From: Fistulifera solaris
Taxonomy: Eukaryota
Assembly (NCBI GenBank): GCA_030295235.1
Contig: AP026129.1
Location: forward strand, 1,302,001-1,366,000
Reading direction: 5' to 3'
DNA: 64,000 nucleotides
A program made the translations under genes and the position numbers. The notes beneath the pieces are model-generated. The model saw nothing but the letters and a program-made list of their open reading frames with translations. It ran no database searches and had not been told where the DNA came from. Below, piece by piece: positions 18,715 through 63,768 of this stretch. Within the stretch, counting starts at the first letter, position 1. Every line of letters starts with the position of its first letter.

Positions 18715-19429
18715 TAATAATATACAATCAAACGATGAAACTGTTTTCTTAAATATGTGGTATATTTCCAAAATATGCTCGCGTGCTTTTACTCATCTGC
18801 CAAGTTTTTGTGTTACCGAAACGAATCATGACAAAGGCGTGTCCTGGAAGTGATGACAATTGGCAGAGTTATTCTCGCCACAAAGCGGACGCTCTAAACG
18901 ATCAGTGGGTTTCGGGAGCAAAGAACACTGGAGGGTCCTTGGCAAACAAGACTACCTTCATGTCGATGCTGCCGCTAATCGTGCAAATGACAGTGCATGG
19001 GACATGACGTTCACAGAGGGAACGGGACAAAAGGAAGCTGAATCAACAACTCAGGAATGAAATTCAGTCTTGAGCTATTTGCGGGGTTTATTGTCACGGT
19101 TCGCGCGGTCCGAAACGAGCCCAAAATTATGACTTTTTATATATAGTTGTGGTGTACCGGTTTTACTATGTTGTAAGACAAAAGGTTTAGCAATTGACTT
19201 CGTTCGGACAATGTTCACACAAAAACTCAGAGACCGCAGAAGCCTATTATACTCGGACAAAAGATGTCCTCCATCATCGTTGGGAGTTTTCTCTGTCCTT
19301 TTTTTCTTCATCTCATCATCGTTGGCTTCATTCTTCGTCGTCTCCATGATTATTTCTCCCTTATCGATCGCGTCTGTGTGATTTTTATATCCAAAAGGTA
19401 AACCTTTCCCCCCTTTTTTATACAAACAA

Positions 19430-25400: not shown

Positions 25401-25799
25401 GGTTTGGGATGGTTGGTACAAGAACTGAAGGAGCAAGGTGTCTGGCAAGATGTAACCCTGGTCATCGCATCGGAATTCGGTCGAACTCTCACTCCTAACT
25501 CGGGCCAGGGATCAGATCACGGATGGGGTGGTCATTATGTGATGATGGGCGGCGATGTTCAAGGAGGACGCATCGTCGGTGAATATCCTACGGATTTAAC
25601 TGACACGGGCCCTTTAAACATTGGACGGGGACGCATCATGCCGACTATGAGTTGGGATGCTGTATGGAACGGTGTAGCGCAGTGGATGGGTGTTACAGAA
25701 GAGGCCGAGCTAGAAGCCATTCTTCCGAATCGAAAAGCATCTACCGGAGGCCCGTTTATGGATTTGATGACTGAAGCCGACCTGTTCGAGGCCAGATAG
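19430..25799 (+). CDS. Large secreted DUF1800-DUF1501 fusion protein (about 2000 aa); introns 20224..20297, 22056..22128, 22191..22254, 23473..23550, 23967..24045
   Basis: Signal peptide; DUF1800 motifs ARFLEQATFGP, DQLRQKMAWALSQI, PDENFAREAMQ, HPNTAPFIS.RLLQRF..SNPSP; DUF1501 motifs KAVIYLMLEGGMDSYNMLVP, LFAHN, WDHH, SEFGRTL, GSDHGWG; the five GT-AG introns restore frame; additional indels remain. Confidence 0.9.
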
Positions 25800-36100: not shown

Positions 36101-36597
36101 AAATTACGAATGCTGGCCAAATTGGAAGCGGAGCTCTTGTTTCGTGAATATGAAGCTCATGGAGGTTCGCTTCCCGAAATATCTCAAGTCATTAGTAACT
36201 GCATTAATGCAGCCACTGATGCGCTGGCGTTGGCGTTGGATTCTTTATCGGAAGCCGATCAAGAAGCTCTATTGCCCCTTTTCAAATGCATTTGCCCAAG
36301 ACGATTGCTGATTTAGCGTTTGATCGAGTTCACGAACGAGTCCCGAAGCAGTACATCAAGAATGCGATTAGTTCTGCTTTAGCTGCGAAAATGGTGTACA
36401 AGGAAGGGACGACCTTTATTATGTCACTTCCTAAAGAAAAGTTGGCCACAATTTTGTTCCATTATTTGGAGAAAGAAAAGGAAGTTGCCGTTTTGCTGCA
36501 ATCTCTGGAGAATGTGGAAATGTCGGAGGATAAAAAGCAGGCCGTGATTCAACTGTTGGAAAAGGGAGGCGCTCGCACGGCTTTGGGAGTTTATTAA
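33102..36597 (+). CDS. GDH: Large NAD-specific glutamate dehydrogenase (GDH2/GdhB type), probable mitochondrial presequence; introns 33437..33578 and 35043..35115
   Basis: GFHVRFRDISRGGLR, QQLKNKDI|PEGGSK, YLGPDE, GINHKQFGVTSEG, TGGPDGDVAGN, PCGGRP, VEGANLF, KDSSANKGGVITSSYE; N-terminus MTVWLKITAFSFTRRGL. Confidence 0.95.
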
Positions 36598-43800: not shown

Positions 43801-46800
43801 CGCCCGTGCCGAGACTCCTGGTTTGTTCGCCGGACGCGTCACAAATGAATGCATCGGGAGCTCCCACTTCCTTTGCAAATTCCTTCATGGCCTGCAAGAC
43901 TTCACCCTTCGACCTCATCGGTACAACATGCACGAAACCCTTGTCCGACACAAACAATTGACAACACGTGTGTCCTCGTTCAGACTTGCCAGTTTTGGAC
44001 GTAGCAAAGAGGGTATCCATGTAAAAGTACTCTTTGATGTGCTTGTAACGAAGCATGCGGTCGTTCGTTCCATAGTTGCGCCAACTTTGGGTTGTCTTGT
44101 CTTGACGCACGTTGATCGGTAACTTCAATTGTCCGCTCGGCATCTTTATATTCAATACGCCAAATTTTAGACAAGTGCGCTGCATCGACTCCCTGATGCC
44201 GAATGCCATGGGCAGCAGAGATCATCAGCTCATCCAACTCGTCACCAGATTCAGCCCTGGCAAAGTACTCTTCAACTAGATCAACAGTGTCGTCTGCAAT
44301 TGTCGCGAACGGGAGCATCAGTTGCATCACCATCATGGTATAGATGTCGCTGAGAGGAAACAGTTGTTGCGCCCAATTGCCATAGAAAACTCACCGCACT
44401 CAGCACGTTCCTCCATTCTGGCAAGCAAGCTAGAACATTCTAGTTGTGGCGAGAAAGGCAGAAAAAGCATGATCGTGATCGGCGTCCTCTGTAAAAGTGA
44501 ACTCTTTTTCAACGCTGGCTCCTCTCCAAACTGCTTATGACAAAGCGACTCCCTGTCATTGTCTTGAACAGCTGTCATGAGATAGCGAGTTTTTGGTAGA
44601 GGCAACACCATCTCTCCATTACAATCCAACATAGCCGCCTCATTTATCGCATAACTGACATTGTGAGGGTCCCATACCGTCGGTGTCAGCATATAAATGT
44701 TCTCCGACTGCTGCAGTTGGAGGAGGCTCGCTTGCTGGTTGCAAAGAAAGAGAAAACACCATGTAAAGATAGAGGAATCCGTAGTCCTGTTTCTTGAAAG
44801 TAAATCGCATGATTATCAACAGTTGGATCCATGGTCTGTATCTTTGGTGTGTCATCAACTATGACACCAGCCTCACGCATCACAAAAGGCGGTATCAAGT
44901 TGTTTTCCATATTCGGAACATAAAGTGCATTCCGAACAAGCAAAATGATTTCATCCCCACCATAGGGACACTCAGAGCAACGCGGCATCAACGAGTGAGC
45001 ACTGCATTGGTTTATAGTCTGGAGTAAACGGCTAAAACATCCACTGTCTCCCCAGTCCTAGCAACCACAAATGCATTTCGCCCGACGACTGGCATATTTG
45101 CATGTGTGTCCAATTCAGTCCTCGAAATCCCTGACGTTACTTGGTCATCAACGTCCATCACACCAGTATCCATAACGTCGGCATGTAATGATGCAATTAA
45201 ACGTGCCAGATGGTCATTTGGTGCGGTATGTCGTCCTCGGTCCCACGTTCGACTGTTCTCCGGCTCTGACTCTAAACCTACCTTCCAGTCATCATTGACT
45301 GGAGTAGTTTCAGCCGCCGGGCCCAGTCAACGGGTGTAGCGATGGCTCACAGGACGAGGGAGGACCAGCACGACGGATTGCACGTTCATACGTCTCCCGC
45401 CCGCGTGGCCTCAGGTCCCGCCGTTGCTTCCCCCTTTGCATCCTGCATTGGTTCCGAGGTAGACTCATCCTGTGTATCCTTGACCTCAACAGATGACACG
45501 TTTCCACCCTGAGTCGCTGAACCCGTAATCATTTGAAGAAGGTTACGCTTGTTGCTCCACAGCAGAGACTTGTGAACTTCGCACCTGTCGCCGCCGACGT
45601 CCACTTGGCCACGGCCCTCCATGTGCTTATTCACCGCCTTCTCCACTGCTGCTGCAAGTGCCTTGGTCCGCTTGTCCTTTTTCTTCTGCTTCTTAGCTGG
45701 GTTCTTGAACTCATCTGGGTTCTTGGCCCGATATTCCCGCAGCTCGTTCCTTTGCTCCGACGGTCAGTTTTGCATATTCCTTGTTCGTGTGGTAACGCAA
45801 GTGGACTCCACTTGACCCAATGCCTTGTTTTGCAGTCGCTCCGGACGGCTCAGCATGTACATCAGAGATCGACGCGTTATTTCTCTTGTTGGTACCTGCC
45901 ACATTCTGGCGTTTTGCAACAGGGTCCTTTGGGAGCAAATAAGCGACGGCCTCTTCGAAGTTGTGCCTCTTGCCTCCAGGTCCGTCATCATTCTCGATGT
46001 GTGCTATTGCGGCCTGCAATCCTGCATCATCACAAATGATCTTGCACAAAAGGTCGGTCACTCGGCGATAGCCATCAGGAAGCTGATGAGGTACGTGCTC
46101 GGCAGCAGCAGTCATCTGGATATAGGCCGTGCGGTGCTGCTGGACAAAACTCTCCAACGTAAAGTTTGAATTTCCTTTCCATTCTCTACGGGCAATGATG
46201 TCCTTGTGCTTCGCAATAATGGCGTCCCATTTATCCTTTCCAGCATACTGTGCCTTCAGCGCCAAGTAAGCTCCTCTTCCGTCTAAGGTCCGCTTGAACG
46301 GGCAATCGAGTCTTGGTACACCGTATTCCGTGTCGCCTCTTCGATCTTGAAATACACCTCCGCATTATCTTCCTTGTAGTTTGCCCGGGAATGAGAAGAA
46401 CGATGAATCAAGTCCTCCACAATAGATCCATGCTGCTCAGTGTATGGCTGACCCTGTGCTCGGGAGGGCAGTCAATGGCAACATCAACTGAATCCCTGAT
46501 CACAGCAGCCAGTGGCACAAACTTAGTGCCAATGCATTGATAGCAATGATCCTTGAAAGACTCAATCCATTTGACAAAGGAAACACCTTTTCCCAACTTG
46601 GGCACCTCAGGTTGTTCTTTTCTTCTTTTTCGCCTTCAAGGCGTCCCAAAGCTCCTGAAAGTTCTTGATAACCGGAGTATACAGCATATCCTGCGCCGTA
46701 ATCACTCTTCCAATTGTGTCATAGAAGTGGAGCAGTTCAATGGCCGCTTCTAATCGGATCTGTGACTTGATTGGGAAGGAAAAAGGCTCTCTGGGAATTG

Positions 46801-47401: not shown

Positions 47402-50400
47402 ATGCCGAAAAAGGGAAAGACGCCCGCAAATAATGGTAAAACAACTCCGAAATGTACTTGCCAAGACCCTTACAAATGTGAATGCGGCCATCGACCAGAA
47501 CGACCCAGCAAAGGCCACAAATGGGATCCGGAAACGCAAACCTGGGGCGGTAAAGGACACAAACAAAAAGGTGCTTCGGGACAAACGGCATCCATCGCGC
47601 AAAAGCGACCACGACGGCCGTCGGGCAAACGTCCGTGGCGCAATGGCAACGCATGCCTTCTCAACTCCTACAAGAATACTGCAAAAAGAACAAGCGACCG
47701 TTACCGAAATTGGAAAACAAGAGCAAGAATGCGAATGCAAAATGTCTGTATAAAGTAATTCTGGCCGACGGCAAGAACACACAAAAGGATTTGTTTTTCC
47801 AGCCGATGCACGCTGTTGGAAATGAAGAACAGGCACGAGAAGAAGCTTGTTTGTTGGCCTTGTTGTCGTTGACACCCAATTTGCCGCATGAACGAACGTT
47901 ACCGGAACCCTATCGGACAACTTGGTTACACGCGATTGCGTCCGTCAAGGAGAGACCGTCGTTGACGACAACACCGACACCCGAACAGTCAACAACGACG
48001 CAGAAAGCACAGGCTTCGAAAGAACTCAAATTGGCTACGACGTTTACCAGTAAAGCGGAACAGAAACGACTCTTGGAAGAAAAACGAAAGCTCAAGAATC
48101 AACGCATGCAACGACACGAAGCGATCCGTAGAGCCAATAAGGATCATGTGGTGAGCATGAGTGCGGCGATGCGGCGACAAATTGAGCGATTGTTGCGGGG
48201 AGAACACGTTGATTGGGATGAAATGAGTTCGGAGGAGGAGGAACAAGAAGATCCGGCCCAAGACGATTTGGCATACTATGTCCAAGATCGCTTGCATCGA
48301 GAGGGATTCACTCGTAAACAGGCGCGAGCGGCGTTCCGACAAGTGGAACAAGGTCGTGTAAGAGACAATCATGACAGCAATAACGAAGATGAGTGGGATG
48401 TGGCGTTTGAAGAATGTTTGCAGTGGTTACTGGTAAATGTCGATGAAGATCAGTTACCGGAGGGAATTGATCCCGACAAAGGCAATGTCACACTTGATAA
48501 TAATGTAGCTCCCACAAACGCCGCTTCGGCAGAATTGGGGGCACAATGGGGTCTTTCGAATGCCGAAGTGAAACTAGTACAAGCCAGAGTCGATGACAAT
48601 CTCAATTTTGAAAGTGTCTTGTGGTCTATGCTCGTTGAAAAGGCGGGAGTGATACTTCCGGAGACTAACTTGGCTAACATTTCACCCGAACAGAGAGAGA
48701 TCAATAAATCTTTGTTTCAAGAAGAAGTTGAGGCGCTAGAGGCTATTTACTCGGCTGATTTTAAACTGCAAATGCAGTCTTCAGGGCTACATACCATCGA
48801 AATCGTCTCTTGTCACGGCGAGATGGTGTTACGTGTGCTTATTCGAGAAGGCGTGTATCCCTTGTTCCCGCCAGAGAAGGTTTGGCTCACGGGGAGTTGG
48901 GGGTCAAGGTTAGTAGGTTCTGCATATCACATGGAATTGGTGAAATTTTTGGCAGATTTGCCCCTGAGCGATCCGATGATTTTTGAGTTGCATGGGCATG
49001 CTCAAATAATGTTTGAGACATTGGATGATCTTCCGAGCCAACAACTTATTGATGTTTCCTCTTTGAACTCAAATAAGAGAAGGCCGAATAATTTGCAACG
49101 GTTTGAAGAGATAAAGTTCGATAAAGTGGATGCATTCCACATGGACACCACCAAACATACTCGGCCACGTGAAGGAAAGCCATTCTGGTCCCAATCGCCT
49201 TCTCAAACACCGGAAGCAACACCGTTCCCCAAAATCAGCACAGCCATAGAAATGGCGCGGAAATCACTTCCTGCAGCCAAAGCTAGAGATGACTTCCTCC
49301 AACTCCTTCGCCAAGCTGGAGAATCTGGGAGAGTGCTTCTCTTGACTGGGGAAACAGGTTGTGGCAAGACAACGCAAATTCCTCAGGTACGTAATATTGC
49401 TACCACCATCAAAGAGTCACTCGTTAGCAGCTCAAACGTTCCTTCCGATTTTGTTTCACCCCTAGTTTATTTTGGAGGAGTATCCAAAGGATTCGAAAAT
49501 CGTCGTTGCTCAGCCCAGACGCCTAGCTGCCACAGGTGTTGCGAGTCGCGTCGCTGCAGAGAGAGGAGAGTCAAAACTAGGCAAAGGAAGTGTTGGCTAT
49601 GTTGTAAGAGGGGATTCAGCAATTTGCGAAAAAAGCCGCCTAGTCTTTTGTACGACGGGAGTGCTTCTTCGTCAAATGCAAAGCAACGGGGCGCTCGACT
49701 GCATCACGCATGTCGTAGTCGATGAAGTTCACGAACGTCACCTCGATACGGACGTGTTGCTGGGTCTATTGAAGCAATACTTGACCATTTACCCTCACCT
49801 GAGAGTGATTCTGATGAGCGCAACACTCGATGCTGATCGCTTTGCAAACTATTGGGTGGGTAATACACCGCGCATGCAGATACCTGGACGAACATTTCCC
49901 GTCAAAGACTACATGTTGGAAGATGTACTCTCGCTCACAGGTTATGTTCCACGTCGAAAGAATTTTGGGTTTAGAAGAGGTTTCGGACCAAAGCGATCAA
50001 CGCCTTGGGCTGACTCGGAAATGTCCGAAGACGAAGACGGAGTCCCATCGGATCTTGTCGCTGAACCGAAGGTAGATGCAACAGTTGCGCAACCAATGAG
50101 AATTGACGACATCATGAAGAGAATCGATGAAAATTACATTGATTATGATCTCCTGGCTGCTCTTGTGAGTCATCTTGTGCGAAACAAGCCTTTCGCTGAT
50201 AATGGATCAATTTTGATTTTCCTACCTGGAGCCCCCGAGATCAACAAAGCAATTGAAGCAATACAACATGCAGCTTCAGACCTTCCAATTCGACTTTTTC
50301 CTTTGCACGGAGGTTTGCAGCCACAGGAACAAAATAAAGTTTTCCTTGCAGTGGAGAAAGGTTTTACGAAAATTATTGCATCTACAAATGTGGCCGAAAC

Positions 50401-51864
50401 ATCGATTACTATTCCTGATTGCACAATTGTTATTGATAGCGCCAAAGAAAAACAATCTTCTTACGATCCAGCGAATAGGATGCCCCTTTGCTCGAACAAT
50501 TTGCTTCCAAAGCGAGCTTAAACCAGAGAAGGGGACGTGCTGGAAGAGTCAGAGAGGGGACATGCTTTAAGCTTATATCGAATACTACGTATCACAAGCT
50601 GCATGAGCACAGTGAGCCAGAGATACGTCGAAGCGCTTTAGAACAGACTCTACTTTCTCTGCTCTACTTAGGAGTTGAAAGCGGCACGGGTGATTTCTTT
50701 CGCTCCCTTATCGATCCTCCTACTGTTGAATCAATTCTCGCAGCCGAGTCCACTCTTATCCAATTGAGCGCTGTTGAGCGGGTGAACACAAACCTCCATC
50801 TGACGCCGCTTGGTCTTCATTTAGCTGGAATCCCCGCGCCTCCAATGATCGGAAAAAGTAAGTTGCTTTGCTATGCTTGTGAAAGCGAAACTTGTGTCTC
50901 ATTCCGTTACGGCGGTTATTAGTGTTGATAATGGGCTGTATATTGGGGTGTCGAGACGCTTCGTTGGCAATGGCAGCCGGTATGAGTCTTGGGCGCTCGC
51001 CTTTCATCCGTATTGATAGCAATCCAAAAACGAAGGAACCATCTAGCACGTTTAACTTGATTGCATTGAAAAATCGAACGGATCTCATCGAATCTGTTGG
51101 CGACAGTGACCACGCTGTCCTTGCAGCTGTCTATTCTCAATGGAAAGTGCCAGAGAATGACAGCTCTCGACGTCGCAGTGTTTGCGATGCGCTGGGCCTA
51201 TCTTTTTCTGTAATGCGAGATATGGATCAATTAGTCAAACAACTCGATTCTGCACTTGTCAGTTTAGGATTCCCCCCGTCTGCAGACTCGAACCAAAATG
51301 GCAAGTTATGGCGAGTCGTTCGCGCCTGCGCTGTGGCAGCGCTAGCACCAAGTCAGCTTGTGAAAGTTGTCAGACCAGCAGCAAAGTTTGAAAAGACAAC
51401 AGAAGGAGCCAAAGAGATCGAAGCACATGCTCGTGAGCTCAAGTTCTTTATCCGAGCTGTTCGCAATTTGGAGCAAAAGGACAATTCATTGTCGGAAGAA
51501 AGAGTATTCATTCACCCTTCGTCGGCGAATTTTTCGGCAGGTGATTATAGCTGTCCATGGCTCGTATTTCATTCAATGGTTAGAACATCAAAACCTTTTT
51601 TTGCGTGATGTTACTGAATGTAACTCGTATTCTTTGCTACTTTTCGGGGGCCCTTTGGAAGTAAAAGCATCCAAAAGTGTGGTATCTATCGACGGATGGG
51701 TGCAGCTTTCAGCAAATGCACGAATTGGGGCCTTAATGGGTGGTCTTCGTCGCAAAGTGGATGAGTTACTTAGCCAAAAAGTCCGGGACCCTTCGTTGGA
51801 AATCGCTAGTACAGAAGAAATGCGACTCATTATCAAGCTGATTACCCGTGACGGTCAAAACTAA
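47402..51864 (+). CDS. DEAH-box RNA helicase, DHX57/DHX29/YLR419W-like, with RWD domain; introns 49387..49465 and 50858..50922; frameshifts
   Basis: GETGCGKTTQIPQ, QPRRLAA, CTTGVLL, DEVH, MSAT, IFLPG, STNVAETSITI, QRRGRAGRVR, FIHPSS; RWD EEVEALEAIY...YP. Confidence 0.95.
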
Positions 51865-52960
51865 GGTGTTGAACTAATGATCACTCGAAGGTGTCTAAGA
51901 ATTTAGTTGCAGCTATAAAAGGTTGCTTGAGAATCCCGCGCCGATGCCATGTGAACACGCAGCCTATTGCAAAGTCGAAACTCGTCATGCCGAAGTGCAG
52001 TGGCTCGTCGGAAACAAGAGCAGAGATCAAGTCACTTCACCGCTTGATTGAAATACAGCTACTGACCAAAAGACCATCAAGATGGCGTGGTCGAAAGCGA
52101 GGGAAATTTACGACAAAAAGTCTCTTTCAATGCAGTTGTAGTGTCCCGCCACTGGCATCTCCCGCGACAAAGAGCTTTCCATTGGACTTCCAAACATAAA
52201 GGCCTTTCTTGATTTGAAGAAATCTGTGAAGAGAAGCCAGTGAAGCGAAGCATGATTTTTGCTATGGGAAAGGTAGTGGCGCCTGTGAAAGCCGAAAGTA
52301 TTTAATCGTTCGATCGAGCTCAGTGGCTCAATTTCGTTTGAGTGTCGTCGCCAAGCAAACTTTTGGCTGTGGCAAATCTTTAGCGGGGATAGACAAACCA
52401 AAGTATTAACGATGCTTAAGCATGGATTTCTATTTTCGTCTCCCTTTTAATCATCATCGTTTCTCGTCACATTGTCGGGCCTCGTTTCCGTATTGCAAGC
52501 GGATGTGAATTAATGGTAAGAATCTCCTACTGATTTATCGATTTCGGGATTTCGGTGTTATTGAGATTGGTGGAATGACTATGATAGTTTTTGTATGGAC
52601 TCTACAATACAACAGCATCAATTCGGCTCATTTATGACTCTCACAAATTTGGCGAAAAGAGGTCTTTGAGCTTCTGGATTATCGCACAACCAATAGAAAC
52701 TACACAAAGAAGTAGTGTCGTCCTGTCCGACGACACCCTCCAGAGGCCCAAATATTGAAAGAAAAAAGACCGAAGGCTACTTTCTACTCGGACAAAGAGT
52801 AAAAAAGCTTCAATCCACCCAACTTTTCCTTCGACTTCTGGCACAATTGGATCGGTGTTTGGGTCATCACTGGCAACAAGGAGATACCATACACAGCCAC
52901 AACTCCAGCAACAAAAAAGCGAGGCAAACATCCAAGTGAAATGAAGTTGCAATTTCTTTT

Positions 52961-54252
52961 GACTGCTTCGATCGCAGTCGCCATCGCTCGTGGCGAAAAT
53001 GTGCCCTCCTCTTTGCGCAAACGAGAGCTTGTTTGGGGGCAAAGTGATGCCGGAACCTTCTATACCTTGATCGCTGCCACAGACTACTCAGCTATGCAGG
53101 GGAGTCGAGGTGCAACAATCTTCGGAAGGAATCACGAACGTCGGTTTCATCGATACCGGCGATTGGGTTTCTTACCCTGTTAACTTGCCCACAAATGGAC
53201 CTTACCAATTCCATAGTCGAATCTCCTCACCCTCTGGTGAAGGAAGCTTCGAAGTGGTAAACTTTGATACACAGCAGGTGTATGCGACCTTTAGTGGATT
53301 CCCCGCCACAGGTGATTATCAGGCATTTACAACTGTCGATCAGATGTTTGATCTTCCGGCTGGGGCATTCTCATTGCAAGTCAGAGCCACCCAAAGTGGA
53401 TTCAACATGCTTTGGTTTTCTCTCAAAGCGGTTGCTCCAGCTCCTGTAGAAGCACCTATTGAAGTGCCTGTTGAGGCTCCTGTCGAGACTCCTGTAGAAG
53501 CACCCGTCGAACCTCCTGTAGAAGCACCTGTCGAACCCCCCGTTGAGCCACCTGTTGAGCCGCCTGTCGAACCGCCTGTCGAACCACCTGTCGAATTTCC
53601 CGAAACCGTCGTCACACCTGCCCCGACTACCACTCGCACTGCATCGCCGACGGTAAAACAAACTCCTTCGCCAACTTCTACACCGACCATGAAGAAGACC
53701 GCTGCTCCGACTTCCGCACCGACCGTCAAGAAGACCGCGGCTCCGACTTCGGCACCGACCGTCAAGCAGACTGCGGCGCCAACTTCGAGCCCTACTGTGA
53801 TGCAGACTCCCGCTCCTACTTCGACCCCGACTGTGAAACAGACACCAGCTCCATCTGCTGCGCCCCTACCGCCTTACTTCTCGTTGATGGCCGCCTCTGG
53901 GTACGCAGAAATGGAAGGTCTTGCTTTGGAAAACTCCAGCGAAGGTCTCCCCAACCTAGCAAACTATGATGCTGGTGATTGGTCAAGCTACGACATCACT
54001 CTTCCTTACGCTGGAACCTACCAAATGATGTTCCGTGTCAGTAGCCCCTTTGGTGAAGGTGGGTTCGACATTACGAACTGGGATACGCAAGAAATCTACA
54101 GCAACATCGACGTCATGCCCAACACGGGTGACTGGCAGTTCTACCAAACTGTTTCAGTTCTTGTCAACCTTCCAGAAGGAGGCATGCGAATGCAACTGAA
54201 GTGTTACAATCCGGGCTTCAACTTGCTCTGGTTTGTCATCAAGTCGCCTTAA
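52961..54252 (+). CDS. Secreted CBM6-like / Pro-Thr linker / CBM6-like protein with no catalytic domain; one frameshift near 53100
   Basis: Signal MKLQFLLTASIAVAIA + KREL; two modules VGFIDTGDWVSY..RISSP..TGDYQAF..GFNMLWF and NYDAGDWSSY..RVSSP..TGDWQFY..GFNLLWF. Confidence 0.88.
53430..53870 (+). repeat. Coding tandem repeats: (E[AP]PV)n 12-bp units, then (KxTAAPTSAPTV)n 36-bp units
   Basis: Visible in both DNA and translation. Confidence 0.9.
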
Positions 54253-54925
54253 ATTTATATTGTGATGTCCTTTCACTGATGAAAGATTCATCGATCCTAG
54301 GACTTTGTGTGTAAAGTTTCATGAATGGCTAATCCAACTTACTTGTTCTTCGACTTCTTCAATTGCTGACCACTAGGTTGCGTCAATCATTTTCTTCATA
54401 GTGTGCAGGAATCATCTAATTGGCAGCTCTTGAACATAGAAGTCCGTGACCCATGATCTCCCAACCTCGCTTTGCTTCCAAGGTCACACACAGTTTTTCT
54501 ATAAGTAAAATTGCTGGAAACAAAAAAGTAGACTTTTTTAAGAAGGGGCTCTAGCTACTTTGTAGAGAGTTAAAGACGGTTTGCTGTTGTTCGATCGGCG
54601 GTCTTTGGTCATTTGAATATTACAAAAAAATGATGTCAAATGTATTCTGTACACAGGACACAGGAATACAGTAAATCTGGGTGAACAAGTCACCATTCAG
54701 AGTAAAGACTAAAGTCAACAGGCCCAATCTGTTATTTTTGGCCCTCAATGTTCGACTATTACTTTTAATTGTAGGAAGCCTATTCGGACTTGCCATTTTT
54801 TACATCAGTACGGAGAGGTGCGACACTAAAGTCCTTCGGCGGATGACTGACTAGGCGATGAAAACGTGAAGTGAGAGCAGTGGACACAACATCGAGCGGT
54901 CTCCTTCATTCTATTTCCTTGATAA

Positions 54926-57259
54926 ATGAGGTTCCTTTCTATTCACATCTTAACAGTAGCACTATCTCTTCTTTTGACGGTCGAAGCTGGAAGAGAGCTT
55001 CATCTGGGTGCCGACCATGAAAACGATCATTACTATTCGCTCGTCTCGGCCGTCAATTTCGATAATTCGTCGGGCGTCGAAACGAGAATATCGTCGGAGG
55101 CACTGAAAAGTCTTCGATACATGCATATCGGCGATTTTGCGGCTTATCAAGTCGATTTGGCCGTTGCAGCGCCTTATCTGATGCAATTACGGATTGCCTC
55201 TCCCGTAGGTGAAGGAAGCATAGAGATTGTGAATCTTCAAACACAACAAGTTTTGGCAACGGTAGAAACAATCAATGCAACAGGCGATTGGAGTCAATGG
55301 ATTACAATTGAACGCGAAATCGAGCTTCCTGCGGGTCTGTCGATATTACAGGTTCGAGCAACTCAGCCTGGTTGGGAATTGCTGTGGCTTTCGTTACTGG
55401 AAATGGACCCCTTGATTACGACGGAAGCACCAATACCCTTGATCACACCGGCTCCCATGGCACCCTTGGTTCCTTCTCCCGTAGTCGATCCGGTGCCACT
55501 CATGACCATGACACCGGTAGCAACGGCGTTACCGACATCTTCGATTCCTTCGCTAGCGCCATCGTCGGTTCCGACGGCCATGCCGACGCGACAGCCGGTC
55601 CCACTGCCCGGCCCGGCGACGGGGTTTGTCCGCGCACATGAACGACTCATTGTGGGCCCGGATGGCAATCAACTGCAATTAAAAGGAATGGTTCTGGGTG
55701 GATGGATGGTATTACAACCCTATCTTGTTTTGGCTGAAAATTATACCAACACGTCGAGTGAACTCTTTGATTTGGTCGAAAAGACAGTTGGATCAGATCA
55801 AATGATGGAATTTCGACAATCATGGTTGGATAATTTTGTGACACACGAAGATGTTCGGGAACTCAAAAGTTTGGGATTCAATATAATCAAGGCCCCCTTG
55901 CATTATGAATTGTTTACGTTACCCATTCAAGAGGAGCCTGTTCGTGGACAAGATACTTGGATCATGACAGGATTCGACTTAGTGGATCAGCTCTTGGAGT
56001 GGGCGGCGGAGGAAGAGATCTACGTGTTGCTGGATCTTCAAGCCGCTCCGGGTGGTCAGAACTTCGACAATGCTACGGATTACGACCCCCGGTTTTATTC
56101 TTTTTGGCAAGATGGGGAAAATCAGCGAAAAGCGATTGCTTTGTGGCGGGAAATTGCCATTCGTTACGCCGATAATCCTTGGGTGGCGGGCTACGACCTC
56201 TTGAATTCAGTTGGGTGGAATTTTGACGAAACAGATATTACCAAACATCAAAATGGCTGCGACGAAGAGACAAATGGACCCCTTCGTTTGTTTTATAACG
56301 GAGCGATCAATGCCATTCGCGACTTCGATACAAATCACATGATTGTACTCGCTGGAAATTGTTGGGGTACAAACCACAAGGGTCTATTTCCCATGAATGA
56401 CGACAATGTTGTATTGGGCTTCCGCATGTCTTGGACGTCGTTAAAGGAAGGAGAAAAGGCGCAAAGGGATGTGCCACCAGAAGAGACCATTTTTCAGCAA
56501 CTATTTGAAAGGGAGAAGTACAACGTGCCATTGATAATGACGCACGCAGGCGATTTTCACAACAAGTGGTACTCTGATACAACGTCCATGCTGGAAGCGA
56601 ATGATATTGGCTGGACATGGTTTACGTGGAAAAAGATGAACTCAACGGATAGTCCCTTTGAAATTTACAGCACCACTTCATACAATACTCTGCTTTCGCA
56701 CTGGGATTACAAATGCGATGACATTCATGTAGAAAGCGCTTTTCGCGCGCTCATGCAAATAGCAAACAATACACAGCTCAGCAAAACAAGGCGTAACCGA
56801 CCAGTCATTGAGGCCTTGCTGAATGAAGTTCGAAATTGCGACTCAGCATTGCAATATGAAGTGACAACAGCGGAGCCTAGGCGAATTGAAGGTGAAGACT
56901 TCTGTATGTCCTTGGGCGTGGCTACAGAGCTTGGAGCAGACGTCGACTCGGTTGGATCTAATGTTGGCTGGCTAAACAGTGGATCGACAATATCCTACAA
57001 GATTGGAGTCGCTGTTCCGGGCACCTATAACCTAAAATTTCGAATAGCCAGCCCCTCGGGCGATGGTGGTCTCACCATCCAGTCAAATGGTATACAGATT
57101 GGATCGTCAAGCGGATTCACGCGAACATATGGCTGGCAAAATTGGGCAGACGTCGACACATCAGTGATTTTGCCCGCCGGCGTACAAGTTCTGGACATTA
57201 TTTCAACAGGTCCAGGTTGGAACTTGAATTGGTTGGAGCTATCGTTCGTTTCCGCTTAG
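54926..57259 (+). CDS. Secreted CBM6 - linker - GH5-fold - CBM6 protein (777 aa); catalytic glutamates absent
   Basis: LGGWM, PLHYELF, LDLQAAPGGQ, AGYDLLNSV (family motif NEP), GNCWG, PLIMTHAG (family motif GExG), GWTWFTWKK; CBM IEGEDF..VGWLNSG..RIASP..TYGWQNW..GWNLNWL. Confidence 0.9.
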   Translation: MRFLSIHILTVALSLLLTVEAGRELHLGADHENDHYYSLVSAVNFDNSSGVETRISSEALKSLRYMHIGDFAAYQVDLAVAAPYLMQLRIASPVGEGSIEIVNLQTQQVLATVETINATGDWSQWITIEREIELPAGLSILQVRATQPGWELLWLSLLEMDPLITTEAPIPLITPAPMAPLVPSPVVDPVPLMTMTPVATALPTSSIPSLAPSSVPTAMPTRQPVPLPGPATGFVRAHERLIVGPDGNQLQLKGMVLGGWMVLQPYLVLAENYTNTSSELFDLVEKTVGSDQMMEFRQSWLDNFVTHEDVRELKSLGFNIIKAPLHYELFTLPIQEEPVRGQDTWIMTGFDLVDQLLEWAAEEEIYVLLDLQAAPGGQNFDNATDYDPRFYSFWQDGENQRKAIALWREIAIRYADNPWVAGYDLLNSVGWNFDETDITKHQNGCDEETNGPLRLFYNGAINAIRDFDTNHMIVLAGNCWGTNHKGLFPMNDDNVVLGFRMSWTSLKEGEKAQRDVPPEETIFQQLFEREKYNVPLIMTHAGDFHNKWYSDTTSMLEANDIGWTWFTWKKMNSTDSPFEIYSTTSYNTLLSHWDYKCDDIHVESAFRALMQIANNTQLSKTRRNRPVIEALLNEVRNCDSALQYEVTTAEPRRIEGEDFCMSLGVATELGADVDSVGSNVGWLNSGSTISYKIGVAVPGTYNLKFRIASPSGDGGLTIQSNGIQIGSSSGFTRTYGWQNWADVDTSVILPAGVQVLDIISTGPGWNLNWLELSFVSA

Positions 57260-57423
57260 TTTTGAATGGTTAAGACTGTTCATTGGCTTGTATCATATTA
57301 GATTCTTCAGAATCACAGCAAGAACGGTCAGTTGACCGTGAAACCGAGTTAATCGTGACAAAAATTAGCGACAGTCAGGTAAAGCGATAGATACTAAACT
57401 TTTCATTAAAAGAGTCAAACAAT

Positions 57424-59774
57424 TTAACACCTTTCCACTGTGTTATTGCCTAGCAATATTTTGACAACCGACGAAATTGGTTTTGCCTTGGATACCAGCG
57501 TGTTGTTGGCGATTTGCATTAAAGCGCGTAAGGCACTTTCTTCATGGATGTTGCTACAATTGTTGCTCCAGTAATCGGCTAGTGTATTGTAGGACGTAGA
57601 ACTACCGAACTGAAAAGGTGTCATTGTTGTATTGAGCCCTTTCCATGTCCACCACAGCCATCCCAACTTACTAGACTCCATCCTCTGAAAGACACTCACC
57701 GATGACTCATTCAGCTCGCCACTGACATGGGTCATAACGACTGGCACGTTGTAGCTTTCTCTGCTTGCAATCAATGATTCTATGGTCTCCATTGCCATTT
57801 CCATTCCGTGTAAATGAAACCCAAGCGCTACATTTGTGTCATTGACCGGTAAAGACCTCGGTGATTCGTACCCCAACAATTTCCTGCTAATATAATCATA
57901 TGATTCAAATCAACTTCCCGGATGGCGGAAATGGTTTGTTCGTACAATGCCCGTAATGGTTTATTGGAGGTTTCGTCACAGCCATTCCAGTGTCGAGTCG
58001 CCCATTCATCTTCTTGAAAATTCCAATCAACCGCGCTGAGCAGGTCGTATCCCGCTAACCACGGATGATCAGCATAGCGCCGGGCCAATTCTTGCCACAA
58101 TGCGACTGTTTTGCGTCTATTTTCCGCATATTCCCACAGCGAAGGGTATTGTACATCAAAATCTGTGATTGGATCTAATCCTTGTCCTCCAGGTGCTGCC
58201 ATTAAATCCAACATTACATAGAGTTCGTGATCCGTAGCCCATTCCATTAGTTGATCCAACAAACGGAATCCAATAGCGGACCAAGTATCATACCCGGTCA
58301 GCGACTCTTCTTGTATCGGCAACGTAAAAAGTTCATAATGCAGGGGCACGCGAATGGCATTGAAACCGGTCACCTTAATTTCTTGCAAATCATCTTTCGT
58401 GACAAATGATTGCAGCCAGACTTGTTGAAAAGAACGACGAGCGTTCATCCCTACCGTTGTTTCGACTCGTTTCCACCATTCACGTGCGGAAATGGAAGAG
58501 GAATTCATCACCAGATTCGGGGCCATCCAGCCACCCAACGCAACACCTCGTAGCAACAGAGGCTGATCTTGTGGATCACGTAAGGTGGTTCCCTGCGCGC
58601 GTACAAAGCCTGTGGCCGTATCCGTAAATGATGTGGGTGTCACTGTTGTGGGTGAGGACGAGGTAGATGTTGCTGTAGGTTCTGTTGTCGGAAGAATGTC
58701 CGCGCTGGGTCTCGGAGTTGAAAGGTTGTTGTTGGGTCTGGATGTGGGAGTCACCGTGGGAATCTCCACCTCCCAATCCCAACACCACCAGCGAAAGTTC
58801 CATCCTCCTTGTTCGACCGTCAATGTCATTGTAGTTAGAGCGGATGGCGTCAAATAGACCCATTCCGAGGATACCTTTTCGTATTGGTACCAACTATTCG
58901 TTGCGGGCAACTGAGAAATCGTGAGAAGAATACGCTTGGATGCATCCTCTTCCACATTCTCCAGTTCGACGCGAAAGGCTCCTTCGCCACTGGGGGTGGA
59001 AACACCAAAATGAAATTGATACCAACCTTGACGAGGTAACACAATATCATACATCACTAGATCCGAAGGATCCAACCAAGCCAAATTGGAAATTTCTTTT
59101 CCTTCAATGGTCATCCCTAGCATGAGACGATAATCTCGAGCCGCTTGATACGTTTGCATGCATTCGCTGGGGGGTGTAGGTGTAGTCGTCGTGTCCGGTA
59201 CAAAAACGACCTTCGAGGGACTTATCGAAGGCGTCATCGATGGTACCGTCGATACCTCCTCTTCCGGCGGCGGTGGTGGTGGTAGTTGGATTGTTCGCAG
59301 ACACAGGGATTGTAAATTGAAGCCACCTTGTAGAATCTGTAATTTCATGGGAATCATAACGGCTGATGATTGATTGCTCAGCGGAGGAATTGTGAATTGC
59401 GACGTAACGGGTTGATAGTTATTCCAGTCGCCCGTGATGGGCATTTCGAACAAATGGGTATAGTATTGCCGTGTTTCGGCATGTACGACCATGACTTTTC
59501 CTTCGCCGGTAGGACTCGCGACCCTCCATTCGATTTCGTTATAAGAAGCAGAAGGAATTTCGTACACGACCCAATCGTGTACATCCAAATATCCCAATGC
59601 ATCGGAAACCGGCAAGACACCTTGCATGGACGTATAATTTGTAGCCGTTAGAAAGAGAGTGCAATCCTGAGCCACGGCGACAGAGAAGCCGAACACGAGC
59701 ACGGAAACAACGACCGTTGTTGTTCGTTTGCGTTTTCGGCTGCACTTGTCTTGATGCCACCAAAAGAAGTTCAT
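57424..59774 (-). CDS. Secreted CBM6-CBM6-GH5-fold protein; catalytic glutamates absent; frameshift near 57860
   Basis: Hydrophobic leader VVVSVLVFGFSVAVAQ; two CBM6-like modules; LRGVALGGWM, NAIRVPLHY, LDLMAAPGGQG, AGYDLLSAV, PVVMTHVSGE, GWLWWTWK. Confidence 0.88.
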
Positions 59775-59882
59775 TGTTGCGTTGCGTTGCGTTCTCCTGC
59801 GCGGATTGATGGGACGAGGGAGCCAATAGTCTAAAAGGAATGTCAAAGGGATGCTTATCGTCAATCTTCATTACAATACTAG

Positions 59883-59910
59883 TGATTGATTGATTGATTG
59901 ATTGATTGAT
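59883..59910. repeat. (TGAT)7 microsatellite
   Basis: Read directly. Confidence 0.9.
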
Positions 59911-60263
59911 AAAGGAACGTTGTTGTTGTCGTCAATCGATGTCGCGCAAGAAAAAAAAACGTGCAAGGCGGCCGAAAAAGGCCCGACAAATTTGTGCTTG
60001 GAGTTTTTACGAAAAGTACTCTTGGGAACACCCGTTTTCACACTCTTGGGTCTTGGGGGTGCGGTCAATTGTCGCACCAGGTTTCGCTGGCGAGACACCG
60101 CGACACGCAAAACCTCTTCCCTCGTTGGAGACGCGGCAAGCCAGCCAGAAGTGATCTTTCGTTTATTAGGCTGATCGTATGATTATTGTATTATGAACGC
60201 TAGTTATGATATGAATTATAAAACCAAGATGGATGCACCAGCTTTGTGTGAGTGGAGGCTTCT

Positions 60264-61139
60264 TTATTTCTGATACGTGCTGGATCGAGCCATGCCGATG
60301 ATCGGATCGTAATCGTAGACGGCGGCTCCTCCGGATTTGGGGAAACGTAAGACCAAGGTTTGTTTCCCACCGATAGTTTCCACTTTAGGATATCCTGTGG
60401 GCATTTTCACAATACGACCATCTACGCTGATATTTTGTGCCAACAAGAGAGGAATGCCGGCACCGAGATCTCCGTTCTTAATTTTCTTGTTGCGGCCTTG
60501 AATTTCAATGCCGACATCAATGAAATCACCGGTACCGTCTTGGCACGGACTGCACCATTTCCAATGCAAGAGTTGGACGGAGAATTTGAAATCACCCGGC
60601 AAGACTTTCAGCAGTTCTCCGGTATTGGAAACAACTTCACCACCTTCCATCATAATGTAAGCGTCAATTTGAATGGAGCCGACATTCGAGACGTCCGACG
60701 TGAAGGAGAATGACTTGGCATCAAGACCGTACAAATCGGTGTTAAACAAAGAAGTGAAAGCGAATTTCCGACTAGCAAACGACTCGATGGTGTGTTTGAT
60801 TTTTCCGGCCTTGCCCACAACCTTAGCAGTCTTGCCGCTCACTTCACGAAGGAAACTCATTCTCATCGTGACCGCATTGGGATCGGAGATTCCCGGATAG
60901 CGATTATCGTAAAGGGTGATCTTTCCGCTGTTGCCGTGGGTAAAGGCGGACGTGTGAATAATGGGTTCAGGTTGTTCCGAGGGTGCTTCGCTCGGGCTCG
61001 CTGTAGGAGTGGGAGTGGGAGGACGAAGTGACGGTGTACCGCTGGGTACTTCGGACGAGATATCTTCAGCCTTTATTTGGCTTATTGTCCATGCGAACAG
61101 CATGAAAGCTTTCACGAGTACTGTCATTGACTTTGGCAT
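60264..61139 (-). CDS. Secreted protein with Pro/Ser/Thr linker and a beta-rich domain resembling coral SAARP / acidic skeletal organic matrix proteins
   Basis: Signal VLVKAFMLFAWTISQIKA; HTIESFA..F.F, GDFKFSVQLLHWKWC, GDFIDVGIEI, MPTGYPKV, RFPK..YDPII; family resemblance is from recall. Confidence 0.65.
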   Translation of the reverse strand: MPKSMTVLVKAFMLFAWTISQIKAEDISSEVPSGTPSLRPPTPTPTASPSEAPSEQPEPIIHTSAFTHGNSGKITLYDNRYPGISDPNAVTMRMSFLREVSGKTAKVVGKAGKIKHTIESFASRKFAFTSLFNTDLYGLDAKSFSFTSDVSNVGSIQIDAYIMMEGGEVVSNTGELLKVLPGDFKFSVQLLHWKWCSPCQDGTGDFIDVGIEIQGRNKKIKNGDLGAGIPLLLAQNISVDGRIVKMPTGYPKVETIGGKQTLVLRFPKSGGAAVYDYDPIIGMARSSTYQK

Positions 61140-62360
61140 AGTTAAAAGAGGGCCGCAATTTGTTTCGTTTTCGAGGTGCTCGATGGAGCTCGATTGATTT
61201 TTTTTAGAACAAGTGAAAGGAAAAATAAAAATAGATCGTTCAGTTCGTGAAATAGTGATCGTGGGGCAAATCTTTTGCGGAAGAAAGGTACGGTACCGGT
61301 AATCCTCCGGCAAAGAATGTTCACTGAGACCCGGTTGGAGTTGGAGTTAAAGGTTTCAAATAATGGGTGTACAAGTACAGGCATACATTAAATCGTAAGT
61401 CGGCGCAAACGACAACGGGCTAGCGCTAACGGCTAGCGGGTGATTGACTGGTTGACTGCAAGGTACTAATTAGTTGTTGGTAATTTTCACAAGGTTACAA
61501 ATCATAGAGCACAAGAACACATGAACGCAGAGTCATGTGTCCTGTGTCCTGTGTCTTGTGCATGCACCAGTAGCAATCAAGACTAGGGTCACATGTCTTC
61601 TTGCTCTTGTCCGCATTTCTACGAACACTACTAGGAATTTAACGGATGCTTTCTTAATAAATCTAAGCAAATGACTGATGTCCCAAAATCCAAGTTGTAT
61701 GCACTGTGGAGCTGAGGAGTGGGTGATACTATTGACGTAAACTTCGGGAGTTGGCTTTTGGATCTTATCTCGAATAGGTCTTTCACGCTATTCCTAGCTG
61801 GGGAGTTTTTTTGTCGCAAATTTCTCTCTTTTACGTATGGATTTAAGGATAAGGACACAAATTTGATCTCATTCCCAAGTGGCATGTCAAAGTCTTACAC
61901 TCACGAGATGCAGATCATCGAAATGAGGACAACAACATCAGTGGCGGTGAAAACGGCATTCCATGGCAATAGAGGACCACGAATAGATAGGTAACTAGTA
62001 GAGAAGCCTAGTCAGGTCTCTTCTATAAAATGGCACACACAGATTCAATTCTTTCATTCAAAATTGAACTGGGAAATGGAGAATCCGAACGATTTATTTT
62101 GTTGCATGCCCTTGAGCTGAAATATTCTCCTTTTTTATAATACAATGTGTCTGCAGTATATATTTGATGGAACAAGCGATAAATCCCGAGAAAGCTTCCG
62201 ACTGACGAAGGATTCATGACTACCCAGCCCGGAGCCCGCGCACGGTGCTTGCTTGTACGTCAGAAGAAAACCTAATGGATGTCTGCCATAAGCGGGCCAT
62301 CAATCCACGTGCAGCTTCGTTCCTCTGTTGTTGGAATTGTTTCATTTATCTGTCAACATT

Positions 62361-63768
62361 TTAAAAGGGCGAAGAACAGTCATGAGGCGGCCGCACCGGT
62401 GCTTCGGAGCTAGTTCTCGTAAACGTCGCTGCTGTCGTCGGTTCCATAGTCGGTGGACCGGGAATTTGAAACGGAGGTACCACAGCAGTGGTTTCTCGAA
62501 AGCAAAGAGATTGCAAATTCCAACCATCACTGTAAATTTTCATTTCGAGCTCGAATGGTGTAGTTGTCGAGGCGGGCAACGAGAATACGGTACTGGCCAC
62601 TTGCCACGTTGTCCAATTCCCCGTCAAGGGTAATTCATTTTGCAGCATCAACGGTGTTTGCGATGCGGCATCGATCAACAAAAATGATCCCATTCCTTCA
62701 GGACTGGCGACCATAGTGTCTAATTGGTACGTTCCGGCTGGCAAAGTTAAATTGTAAACGACCCAATCACCCGAGTCCAAGTAACCCACGTAATCCGTAC
62801 CCGCTTCGTAGCTCACACCTGACATAGAAGCATAGTCAGATGCATTCAAGAACAAGTTGCATTCATCAAGACTGATCACAGGCGGAAGTATGGAGGTGGC
62901 TGGAACAGAGACGGGGGGTCGTTGCGGGGGCAATAGGCGTAGATACCGGAGCCGCAACCGGTGTTACAACAGGAACCATCACCGAAGGTGCCAAAGGAAC
63001 GGCGACAGGTGTCACAACTGGAGTAAATAGAGGAGGCATTGCTTCTGGCGCCATTGGAATTACCACCGAAGGGGTAACTGGAACAAGAGGAGCTGCTATA
63101 GGAGCACTTGTCAACGTTGCTGGAGCCGTGGTCAGTGATAATTTTGTCGGAGAAGTGGTTACCGAGACTGGCGTCATTACGGGAGCCATGGTTGTCGAGA
63201 CAGTAGGTGATGAAACAACATCAATCGGCAATAAATTCATCCATTGCAAACTCCATCCTCCTTGATCAACAAAAAGTTCGATGGTATGCAACCCCACGGG
63301 CAAGGTCAAATTTGTGGAAACTGTCGTCCAAGCATCTGCCGTAGAAGGCAAATTCGAAAATGTCGCCAAAACCGCACGCGTGTCGACTGAAACCACACGC
63401 ACGGATCCCCCTTCCGTCGCGGACGAAATCCTTAACGACAATTGATACAGTCCGTCCTCGGGTATGCCCACCACATAACGCAGCCAGTCATTTTGTTGTA
63501 AATTCATGACACTCTTCGTTCCTTCGGACGATACAGCTACTGTGGCTGTACTGGGTGTTTGTACAAAGGATGCTGTAGCATAATCAGCGGCCGAAATAAG
63601 ACTGGTAAAAGCAGGATGCTGGGAGCCCCATTGCAATTGTCGTGTGTGTTGTGGGGAAGATTGCGTTCGTCGTCGTCGTCGTACGGATTCTGCGTCACCG
63701 TACGGACACGTAGCATTGACTGCCAAAGCAGTAATTACAAGAATGGTTGCAGACGCAAGGACTCTCAT
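62361..63768 (-). CDS. Secreted CBM6 - Pro/Thr/Val linker - CBM6 protein; frameshift near 62900-62950; 3' end uncertain
   Basis: Signal MRVLASATILVITALAVNA, RQLQ motif; modules LQQNDWLRY..RISSA..GGWSLQWM and VGYLDSGDWVVY..VASP..TGNWTTWQ..GWNLQSLCF. Confidence 0.85.

Follow-up and report, generated by a model that had tools for sequence, protein, structure and literature searches.

The two GH5 barrels encoded in a five-gene cluster of the diatom Fistulifera solaris are, by residue content, catalytically dead pseudoenzymes of GH5 fold, and they are maintained without decay. They lie among secreted-type proteins built from CBM6 modules in the window (the whole stretch of 64,000 nucleotides analysed, contig AP026129.1). 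An earlier sequence-only reading had described five neighbouring genes here with eight CBM6-like modules, no intact catalytic domain and no introns evident in the modules, and all of this stands: Pfam, a PF03422 search and a custom HMM recover the proposed module architectures (Table 1), eight Pfam CBM6 matches fall in the cluster, no joints (introns) are listed inside the five genes, and both catalytic glutamates are replaced in g2 and in g3. The locus is one of many CBM6-bearing sites in the genome and not a unique one.

Dead barrels and CBM6 modules of the cluster

Why should these barrels be called dead? Pfam assigns them to Cellulase/GH5 (PF00150; E 3e-13 in g2 and 5e-15 in g3), and an AlphaFold model of the g2 barrel (pLDDT 94) has GH5 structures as its top listed fold matches, the best being the GH5_22 xylosidase 9KU5 (E 6e-28). 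A GH5 hydrolase has an acid/base Glu after β4 and a nucleophile Glu after β7. In g2 these positions hold Ser428 (56207-56209) and His540 (56543-56545), and in g3 Ala581 (58034-58032) and His683 (57729-57727); the homeolog and separately deposited protein records carry the same replacements, which are therefore not assembly errors. The damage extends to the conserved Arg, His, Asn, His, Tyr and Trp around the -1 site: g2 keeps one of eight pocket positions and g3 three, so that neither has the glutamates or the pocket of an active GH5 hydrolase. Among sequences with both Glu, each canonical pocket position is kept in 75-78 of the 78 aligned, and four to seven of these eight otherwise near-invariant residues are changed in the dead barrels. 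The name GH5 glycoside hydrolase that annotation pipelines give to such genes does not fit 7 of the 19 copies aligned (two more distant GH5 pairs, C17/C18 and C10:1135k/C9:1146k, were left out of the analysis).

Every domain of the cluster is under purifying selection, with dN/dS of about 0.04-0.23 between homeologs. The value for the g2 barrel falls within the range of the intact paralogues (0.016-0.098); g2 keeps the fewest canonical pocket residues and yet has the most conserved barrel.

Table 1. Genes and domains of the cluster, by position in the window.
Feature	Position	Strand	Description	Length	dN/dS
g1	52941-54252	+	leader, RxL site, CBM6, Pro/Glu/Thr linker, CBM6	~437 aa	
g1 CBM6 module 1	53058..53430	+	cleft A F/Y/N kept		0.037 (part after frame break)
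g1 CBM6 module 2	53878..54246	+	cleft A aromatic 33 replaced by Asn		0.037
g2	54926-57259	+	leader, RxL, CBM6, linker, dead GH5 barrel, CBM6	777 aa, open frame	
g2 N-terminal CBM6	55031..55399	+	CBM-only lineage; Asn121 replaced by Glu		
g2 GH5 pseudoenzyme barrel	55613..56842	+			0.045
g2 C-terminal CBM6	56873..57244	+	ancestral enzyme-type lineage; cleft A W/W/N kept		
g3	59774-57424	-	atypical leader, CBM6, CBM6, linker, dead GH5 barrel	783 aa	
g3 CBM6 module 1	59295..59663	-	cleft A Y/W/N kept		
g3 CBM6 module 2	58779..59159	-	cleft A W/W/N kept		
g3 GH5 pseudoenzyme barrel	57448..58616	-			0.23 and 0.15 (two parts)
g4	61139-60264	-	leader, Pro/Thr/Ser stretch, domain without known family		
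g5	63768-62361	-	leader, RxL, CBM6, long Pro/Thr/Val linker, CBM6, Pro/Thr tail	~468 aa	
g5 CBM6 module 1	63229..63609	-	cleft A degenerate		0.147
g5 CBM6 module 2	62496..62861	-	cleft A Y/W/N kept		0.204

The modules belong to CBM6 rather than CBM35. CBM_6 (PF03422) exceeds the cut-off in g1, g2, g3 and g5 and is the top Pfam family there, in g5 for either half (E 3e-29 to 6e-12, against 1e-5 or weaker for the CBM35 families), and the custom HMM finds two modules apiece in these four proteins. The aromatic pair and Asn of cleft A (residues defined after PMC10284105) are kept in five of the eight and altered in g1 module 2, g2 module 1 and g5 module 1; the cleft B Trp is likewise kept in five, and the N-terminal acidic motif is lost in seven. 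The solved CBM6 structures nearest to the cluster modules include the β-glucan binders 1UXZ, 5FUI and 1W9S, in a family whose ligands vary between xylan, cellulose and β-1,3-glucan.

Signal peptides and Pro/Thr linkers had been claimed for all five proteins. Each does begin with a hydrophobic stretch (a hydropathy reading only) and each contains Pro/Thr/Ser-rich segments, with the qualification that the g3 leader is atypical, having a basic N-region of 20 residues. An RxL, a motif of just three letters described as a pro-peptide site in biosilica-associated proteins (PMC5647440), is present in g1, g2 and g5 and absent from g3 and g4. Hydropathy gives no TM-like segment past the leader in g1-g4, and these four proteins have no signalling domain. 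The pI of g1, g2, g3 and g5 is 4.3-5.0.

In the assembly, g1, g3 and g5 each contain a one-base frame break (53099, 57850 and 62913, respectively), a feature absent from the earlier reading. Assembly error accounts for the two at 57850 and 62913, across which contigs align with one gap and no other differing letter; the protein P0009 is g3 read through its break. At 53099 the ortholog P0185 and the homeolog are open, and this break is only probably an error, since it sits in a G run and is corrected by homeolog-type contigs alone. Three runs from a single study have RNA-like contigs with poly-A ends over g1-g3, with a poly-A loose end at 54347 (g1) and a poly-T loose end at 57375 (g3); run type was judged by behaviour (X2-X4 like RNA, X1 like DNA), none being on record as RNA. 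The little or no cover of g4 and g5 in X2-X4 is uninformative either way, and contig depth cannot rank genes. The homeolog carries the cluster genes in identical order, the flanking genes are eukaryotic and the GC of the cluster resembles that of the rest of the window.

The odd gene of the cluster is g4 (dN/dS 0.073). It had been counted into a kit derived from one glucanase, a view that is not supported: g4 belongs to a separate family of four loci in the genome, and CBM6 genes are absent from the examined flanks of the other three. It is unrelated to the CBM6/GH5 genes and probably a passenger of the cluster. Its domain has no Pfam family, a PDB profile search gave a best E of 0.26, Atlas matches of 0.75-0.80 are at chance level and a single-sequence fold (pLDDT 38) was unusable; two homologs were found in all, and none of 81 pattern matches in prokaryote genomes was confirmed. 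The SAARP-like label given to g4 earlier points to a putative resemblance to the SAARP/CARP4 coral skeletal proteins; the Asp-rich acidic composition of those proteins is not that of g4 (pI 8.9, Asp plus Glu 9%), and none of the SAARP papers listed deals with a diatom SAARP.

Origin of the family

Was a glucanase broken up at this locus, as had been proposed? The PF03422 search gives 147 CBM6 matches in the genome, of which the cluster holds eight, in a large, diversified, multi-copy family with varied clefts and as many as a dozen modules in tandem; elsewhere in the genome there are 11 GH5 copies that have both Glu. Epithemia clementina has an intact GH5-CBM6 protein, and thus the family predates the locus. 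The idea of one glucanase taken apart here into a self-contained kit finds no support in these figures, and the cluster CBM6 modules do not form one local clade, their local origin being marginally rejected (AU p=0.04, 56 rows).

The proposed bacterial derivation fares better. In the GH5 tree a 99/98 branch sets the eukaryote-type copies apart, and their nearest clade holds Fibrobacterales-named proteins (100/99), with a midpoint root that does not fix the donor; the bacterial affinity is supported, the loss of catalysis is real, and the GH5-CBM6 family shared with Epithemia is probably bacteria-derived. The family may belong to GH5_46: in Glu spacing and GH5-CBM6 layout its bacterial homologs agree with the GH5_46 enzyme CbGH5. 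With the catalytic columns removed, g2, g3 and two other paralogues form a single dead-GH5 clade (100/99). A search of metagenomes for dead-type loci confirmed 0 of 14 matches and later 5 of 104, with intact-type motifs wherever these were captured.

How are the dead enzymes related to the proteins made of CBM6 alone? The link drawn earlier is borne out: the N-terminal CBM6 of the dead GH5s falls together with every CBM-only module sampled and is separated from the intact-enzyme modules (100/98, 56 modules), and the same split recurs among 138 modules (SH-aLRT 88), in trees of 125 columns and no mixture model, the split having been named post hoc from the first tree. This suggests an evolutionary route from enzyme to pseudoenzyme to CBM-only protein. 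Along the CBM-only lineage, the cleft A triad and the cleft B Trp are each kept in 38 of 75 modules, cleft A aromatic 92 in 63 and Asn121 in 54; the second Glu of the N-terminal acidic motif persists in 4 of these 75, compared with 19 of 26 enzyme-type eukaryote modules.

Candidate functions

What would such proteins be kept for? We give an even chance to the reading that g1, g2, g3 and g5 are secreted, non-catalytic, bivalent β-glucan tethers for wall callose or matrix. On the evidence of the tree, a raphid diatom ancestor would have taken up from bacteria a CBM6-bearing glucanase resembling GH5_46. Sequence, tree and dN/dS show that within the Fistulifera lineage a single copy then lost both catalytic Glu, once, and gave rise to four maintained pseudoenzymes, whose N-terminal CBM6 lineage is, in the tree, also that of the genome's many CBM-only proteins and presumably gave rise to them. 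The proteins would be exported and probably trimmed at RxL, and their CBM6 modules, five with an intact cleft A, would grip β-glucan chains. The most likely ligand may be the β-1,3-glucan (callose) of wall or matrix, and callose has been described in diatom walls (PMC3633991). Extended Pro/Thr linkers would allow two chains to be held per protein, and the dead barrel could add a third domain for binding or docking. Against β-glucan tethers count the three modules with altered cleft A, the loss of the triad and of the cleft B Trp from about half of the CBM-only lineage, the variety of CBM6 ligands and the action of the bacterial enzyme CbGH5 on CMC and xylan. Little is known at the protein level about how diatom walls and biofilms hold their polysaccharide layers together, and the locus offers small, intronless candidates open to testing.

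Could the glucan be a stored one instead? A leader by itself cannot tell the wall from the vacuole, the site of chrysolaminarin storage, and those found here are compatible with any secretory-pathway destination. Chrysolaminarin is a β-1,3-glucan, a known CBM6 ligand type (PMC6272582, PMC3633991), which the proteins might organise or shield, or they might tune the intact GH5 paralogues by substrate competition or docking, with 11 copies available for such tuning. We consider a vacuolar role unlikely, as the mucin-like PTS linkers and RxL sites recall extracellular and wall proteins and a dozen-module, genome-wide family appears to exceed what storage control would need.

A different use of secreted glucan binders would be recognition of the glucans of fungi, oomycetes or bacteria, or a decoy masking the cell's own glucan from bacterial laminarinases. 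The large, diversified family with its varied clefts fits this, a bivalent soluble architecture could agglutinate, and laminarin is a target of GH5_46 and CBMs in marine Bacteroidota (10.1101/2023.09.07.556657). However, dN/dS is low throughout, nothing between the homeologs points to an arms race, and a TM or signalling domain is missing from g1-g4, which leaves recognition quite improbable.

It is also rather doubtful that the modules have given up sugar binding and that the folds of CBM6 and GH5 serve for protein-protein contacts or structure in an acidic extracellular scaffold. The acidic pI of the four proteins, the disappearance of the N-terminal acidic motif from the CBM-only lineage and the strong conservation of a g2 barrel so poor in pocket residues would suit a scaffold, but cleft A aromatic 92 and Asn121 are largely kept in that lineage.

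The pocket of g2 invites two further ideas. Lys, Arg and His occupy three of its positions in g2 and three orthologs, unchanged at 82% domain identity. As a long shot, the basic pocket of the g2-type barrel (Lys322, Arg500, His540) might bind an anionic wall polysaccharide, for example sulphated glucuronomannan, with the CBM6 arms holding callose; if true, the g2-type protein would be the first protein linker between the two organic layers of the diatom wall, and the pseudoenzyme clade would in turn be the evolutionary link between a single borrowed bacterial glucanase and dozens of wall proteins that carry CBM6 alone. It is very unlikely that the 'dead' barrels have acquired a new chemistry, for instance as a His/Arg/Lys lyase or transferase acting on such a polysaccharide. 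The three fixed residues would be in keeping with it, and so would the His that most orthologs of g2 and g3 have in place of the nucleophile, but the four dead paralogues have H, H/Q, K and Q at that position and no common replacement set, which is what loss, and not a new mechanism, would produce.

There is a negligible chance that the genes are pseudogenes in decay or stem from contaminating bacteria or a faulty assembly, for although three of the five have frame breaks in the assembly, contigs mend two of them, dN/dS is far below 1, and eukaryotic flanks, homeolog order, GC and poly-A ends speak against a foreign or artefactual source.

Comparison with known systems

The preferred reading, of secreted bivalent tethers, has its nearest diatom parallel in the Trailins, which are also secreted modular proteins with PTS-rich regions and a domain of bacterial origin. 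The domains are CAA there and CBM6 here (CBM has 0 occurrences in the Trailin text), and the location of Trailins was shown by experiment, that of the present proteins being a prediction (10.1101/2023.03.06.531300). CmCBM6-2 (1UXZ), the ZgLamC CBM6 (5FUI), BhCBM6 (1W9S) and the two-CBM6 protein 8ZVK are of the same family as the cluster modules; in contrast to them, the diatom modules mostly have no attached enzyme.

Close in layout is CbGH5 of Chryseobacterium sp. HT1, a GH5_46 protein with CBM6, which shares signal peptide, GH5 barrel and CBM6 with the g2/g3-type proteins. It acts on CMC and xylan, laminarin going unmentioned, and losing either Glu abolishes its activity (PMC5812240). Its two Glu are 97 residues apart, and 97-99 residues separate them in five bacterial homologs of g2. 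GH5 subfamily 46 has been listed as solely bacterial (PMC3526467). Unlike CbGH5, g2 and g3 are eukaryotic, lack both Glu and have an extra N-terminal CBM6 of a diatom-specific lineage.

Retention of a GH5 barrel after loss of catalytic residues has precedents in GH5_30, the Xanthomonas GH5-expansin-CBM63 protein and the Clostridium thermocellum sensor Rsi24C-GH5, which binds cellulose and so shows that a dead barrel can be a binder (PMC3526467). The diatom proteins differ from these in a separate origin from a GH5_46-like parent, in their four maintained paralogues and in flanking CBM6 modules, and g2 and g3 contain neither an anti-sigma nor an expansin or lipoprotein part. An enzyme that is intact, a pseudoenzyme that is maintained and binders that have no enzyme stand next to each other in one genome, a series rarely seen complete.

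The cluster and its reading frames

The sequence-only reading described a cluster of five leader-bearing genes with eight CBM6 (carbohydrate-binding) modules and no intact catalytic domain, and this cluster is real. Its assignment to CBM6 also held, as CBM_6 ranked well above CBM35 in a Pfam search of the cluster genes. All five genes (g1–g5) encode a hydrophobic N-terminal stretch and Pro/Thr/Ser-rich segments, and an RxL motif lies downstream of the leader in g1, g2 and g5. The flanks are eukaryotic genes. The homeologous contig C9, from the other subgenome, has the identical gene order at 83–89% DNA identity, and its cluster proteins carry the names FisN_16Hh016-018. The gene just past g5, which adjoins this glycan-binding cluster, is syntenic on C9.

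Features of the window, with positions in window coordinates
Feature	Position	Strand	Content
Five-gene cluster	52941–63768		order g1, g2, g3, g4, g5
g1		+	CBM6-linker-CBM6
g2		+	777 aa, CBM6-GH5-CBM6
g3		-	CBM6-CBM6-GH5
g4		-	no domain of known family
g5		-	CBM6-linker-CBM6
Gene past g5	64349–66073 (window-equivalent; locus L041:2349–4073)		hydroxylase-like and sulfotransferase-like domains joined, by eye
Nuclease-like gene	5248–7734		bacterial-type, extracellular, in several frames; by reading, lamin-tail, OB-fold and endonuclease/exonuclease/phosphatase pieces
PEP carboxylase	13569–16679		frame-shifted, by reading
Large secreted-type gene	19382–25799		presumably resembles fused DUF1800 and DUF1501 domains
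Dehydrogenase	33451–36316		frame-shifted, by reading
Retrotransposon fragments	41288–46364	-	Ty1/copia-like gag, integrase, RT and RNase H, by eye
DEAH helicase	47554–51864		frame-shifted, by reading

Are the genes intact? A one-base frame break interrupts each of g1, g3 and g5. The breaks at 57850 and 62913 are corrected by contigs otherwise without difference, and reading g3 across its break gives a sequence identical to the F. solaris record FisN_16Lh017. The g1 break (53099) sits in a G run covered by homeolog-type contigs only; the frame is open at this place in the homeolog and in the ortholog P0185, and dN/dS is 0.037 for both g1 CBM6 modules (all dN/dS values are Nei–Gojobori counts on homeolog pairs, dS 0.2–0.5). 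Three runs from one study, which we guess to be RNA as their cover is confined to genes and shows poly-A loose ends at 54347 and 57375, cover g1–g3 without joints. Across positions 1–52000 many ordinary-looking genes are split by frame shifts; indel errors are thus common in the assembly, and any finding from this genome that rests on a frameshift should be checked against reads.

The remaining gene, g4, is treated as a passenger. It has no family match in Pfam or in a PDB profile search, and it may resemble coral SAARP. Its family occupies three further loci in the genome, whose flanks, over the short distance inspected, contained no CBM6 gene. All three (L063–L067, on C45, C13/C14 and C7/C8) have Trp-x-Trp-Cys-x-Pro-Cys as an invariant motif and lack any recognised domain; by eye their products appear acidic, whereas g4 is basic (pI 8.9).

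GH5 barrels without catalytic residues

The g2 domain was modelled as a GH5 barrel (AlphaFold, 79-sequence alignment, pLDDT 94), with the GH5_22 xylosidase 9KU5 as best structural match. Across 103 aligned domains, each of eight pocket positions is kept in 75–78 of the 78 that have both catalytic Glu; g2, which like g3 lacks them, keeps one of the eight and g3 three. In CbGH5, a GH5_46 and CBM6 enzyme of Chryseobacterium sp. HT1, losing either Glu abolishes activity (PMC5812240). Both residues are also lost in g2/g3 orthologs at 65–82% domain identity. The g2 barrel has a dN/dS of 0.045 and a third dead pair one of 0.11, while the g3 barrel, counted in its two parts, gives 0.23 and 0.15. Four intact pairs give 0.016–0.098, the CBM6 segments 0.04–0.20 and a flanking helicase segment 0.17. 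Judged from sequence, both barrels are dead yet maintained: catalysis is lost, the sequence conserved.

Where did these barrels come from? In a 32-row tree (catalytic columns removed, midpoint root) a branch (100/99) sets the eight dead rows apart; they nest in a group of 18 rows (99/98) that also takes in intact paralogues, Epithemia and three further proteins, and the nearest clade contains two Fibrobacterales-named proteins. A quick 75-row tree agrees; it was built without near-duplicates, fragments, badly broken rows and roughly half of the weaker bacterial rows. A GH5-CBM6 gene was likely transferred from bacteria, and Epithemia clementina also has an intact GH5-CBM6 protein. Another GH5-CBM6 protein, P0061, has Lys and Asp in place of both Glu and falls outside the dead clade, which suggests a second, independent loss within the same eukaryote-type group. 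Separately, the nuclease-like gene of the window is possibly another transfer.

Nineteen GH5 copies of this type were aligned (17 from fetched loci, plus g2 and g3): 11 keep both Glu, seven have lost both and one is left uncalled at a frame break. Two copies carry several frame breaks and stops, which may reflect either decay or errors of assembly; that of L047 (C27:314k) retains both Glu, and in that of L049 (C29:296k) a break falls on the acid/base site.

A proposed route from enzyme modules to CBM6-only proteins

PF03422 has at least 147 matches genome-wide, eight of them in the cluster; this count spans both subgenomes and comes from 150 scored candidates out of 154. Other loci encode CBM6-only proteins with tandem modules up to a dozen or more. 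As a locus, the cluster is one of many and more ordinary than the sequence-only reading had it. At L069:980–7851 (C3, ~124–131 kb) lies an acidic poly-CBM6 frame of 1964 aa plus flanking pieces, with a Ser/Lys-rich tail.

The CBM6 tree has two sides. On one lie every CBM-only module sampled and, from each of the four dead paralogues, the N-terminal modules; on the other lie bacterial modules, modules from intact enzymes and, from the dead ones, those at the C-terminus. This split, defined after the first tree was seen and drawn from 125 columns with no mixture model applied, has support of 100/98 with 56 rows and SH-aLRT 88 with 138 (155 minus 17 dropped). An N-terminal acidic motif, which we take to be calcium ligands, occurs in four of 75 CBM-only-lineage modules versus 19 of 26 enzyme-type eukaryote modules; its loss coincides with the split and may add to its support. 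The simplest reading of these sequences would run from enzyme to pseudoenzyme with a new CBM6 lineage, and then to CBM-only proteins; modules may instead have been donated in reverse. At 93/93, one module of the third dead paralogue forms a group with module 1 of g1, g2 and g5. For the cluster's modules as a whole, an AU test marginally rejects a single clade (p=0.04), and with it a single local origin.

Possible function and known systems

What could such proteins do? There is about an even chance that they are extracellular bivalent β-glucan tethers, which would be exported to the cell exterior and whose CBM6 modules would hold β-glucan as ligand. Published work describes a CBM6 binding cleft A of two aromatics and Asn (PMC10284105), β-glucan binding by CBM6 (PMC6272582), callose in diatom walls (PMC3633991) and wall-associated proteins with RxL sites (PMC5647440). 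Mapped via 1UXZ, cleft A is intact in five of the eight cluster modules, and the nearest solved modules include β-glucan binders. Against tethering, ligands vary across CBM6, and the full triad is present in only 38 of 75 CBM-only-lineage modules. The substrates of CbGH5, CMC and xylan (PMC5812240), also count against it.

Handling of chrysolaminarin, which would set the leader-bearing proteins in the vacuole, is unlikely. Roles in recognition or as decoys, which would share glycan binding with the tethers, are doubtful, and a non-glycan scaffold has a slim chance. New chemistry in the barrels is improbable, and decay, beside the low dN/dS, is scarcely credible.

The interest of the locus is that its maintained pseudoenzymes would connect an intact, probably borrowed enzyme to a CBM-only family. 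None of the open-access matches listed describes CBM6 proteins or GH5 pseudoenzymes in diatoms; subscription papers and closed preprint supplements may hold such an account. Dead GH5 modules are already known from GH5_30, a Xanthomonas GH5-expansin and Rsi24C-GH5 (PMC3526467). Trailins (10.1101/2023.03.06.531300) are likewise bacteria-derived secreted modular proteins of diatoms.
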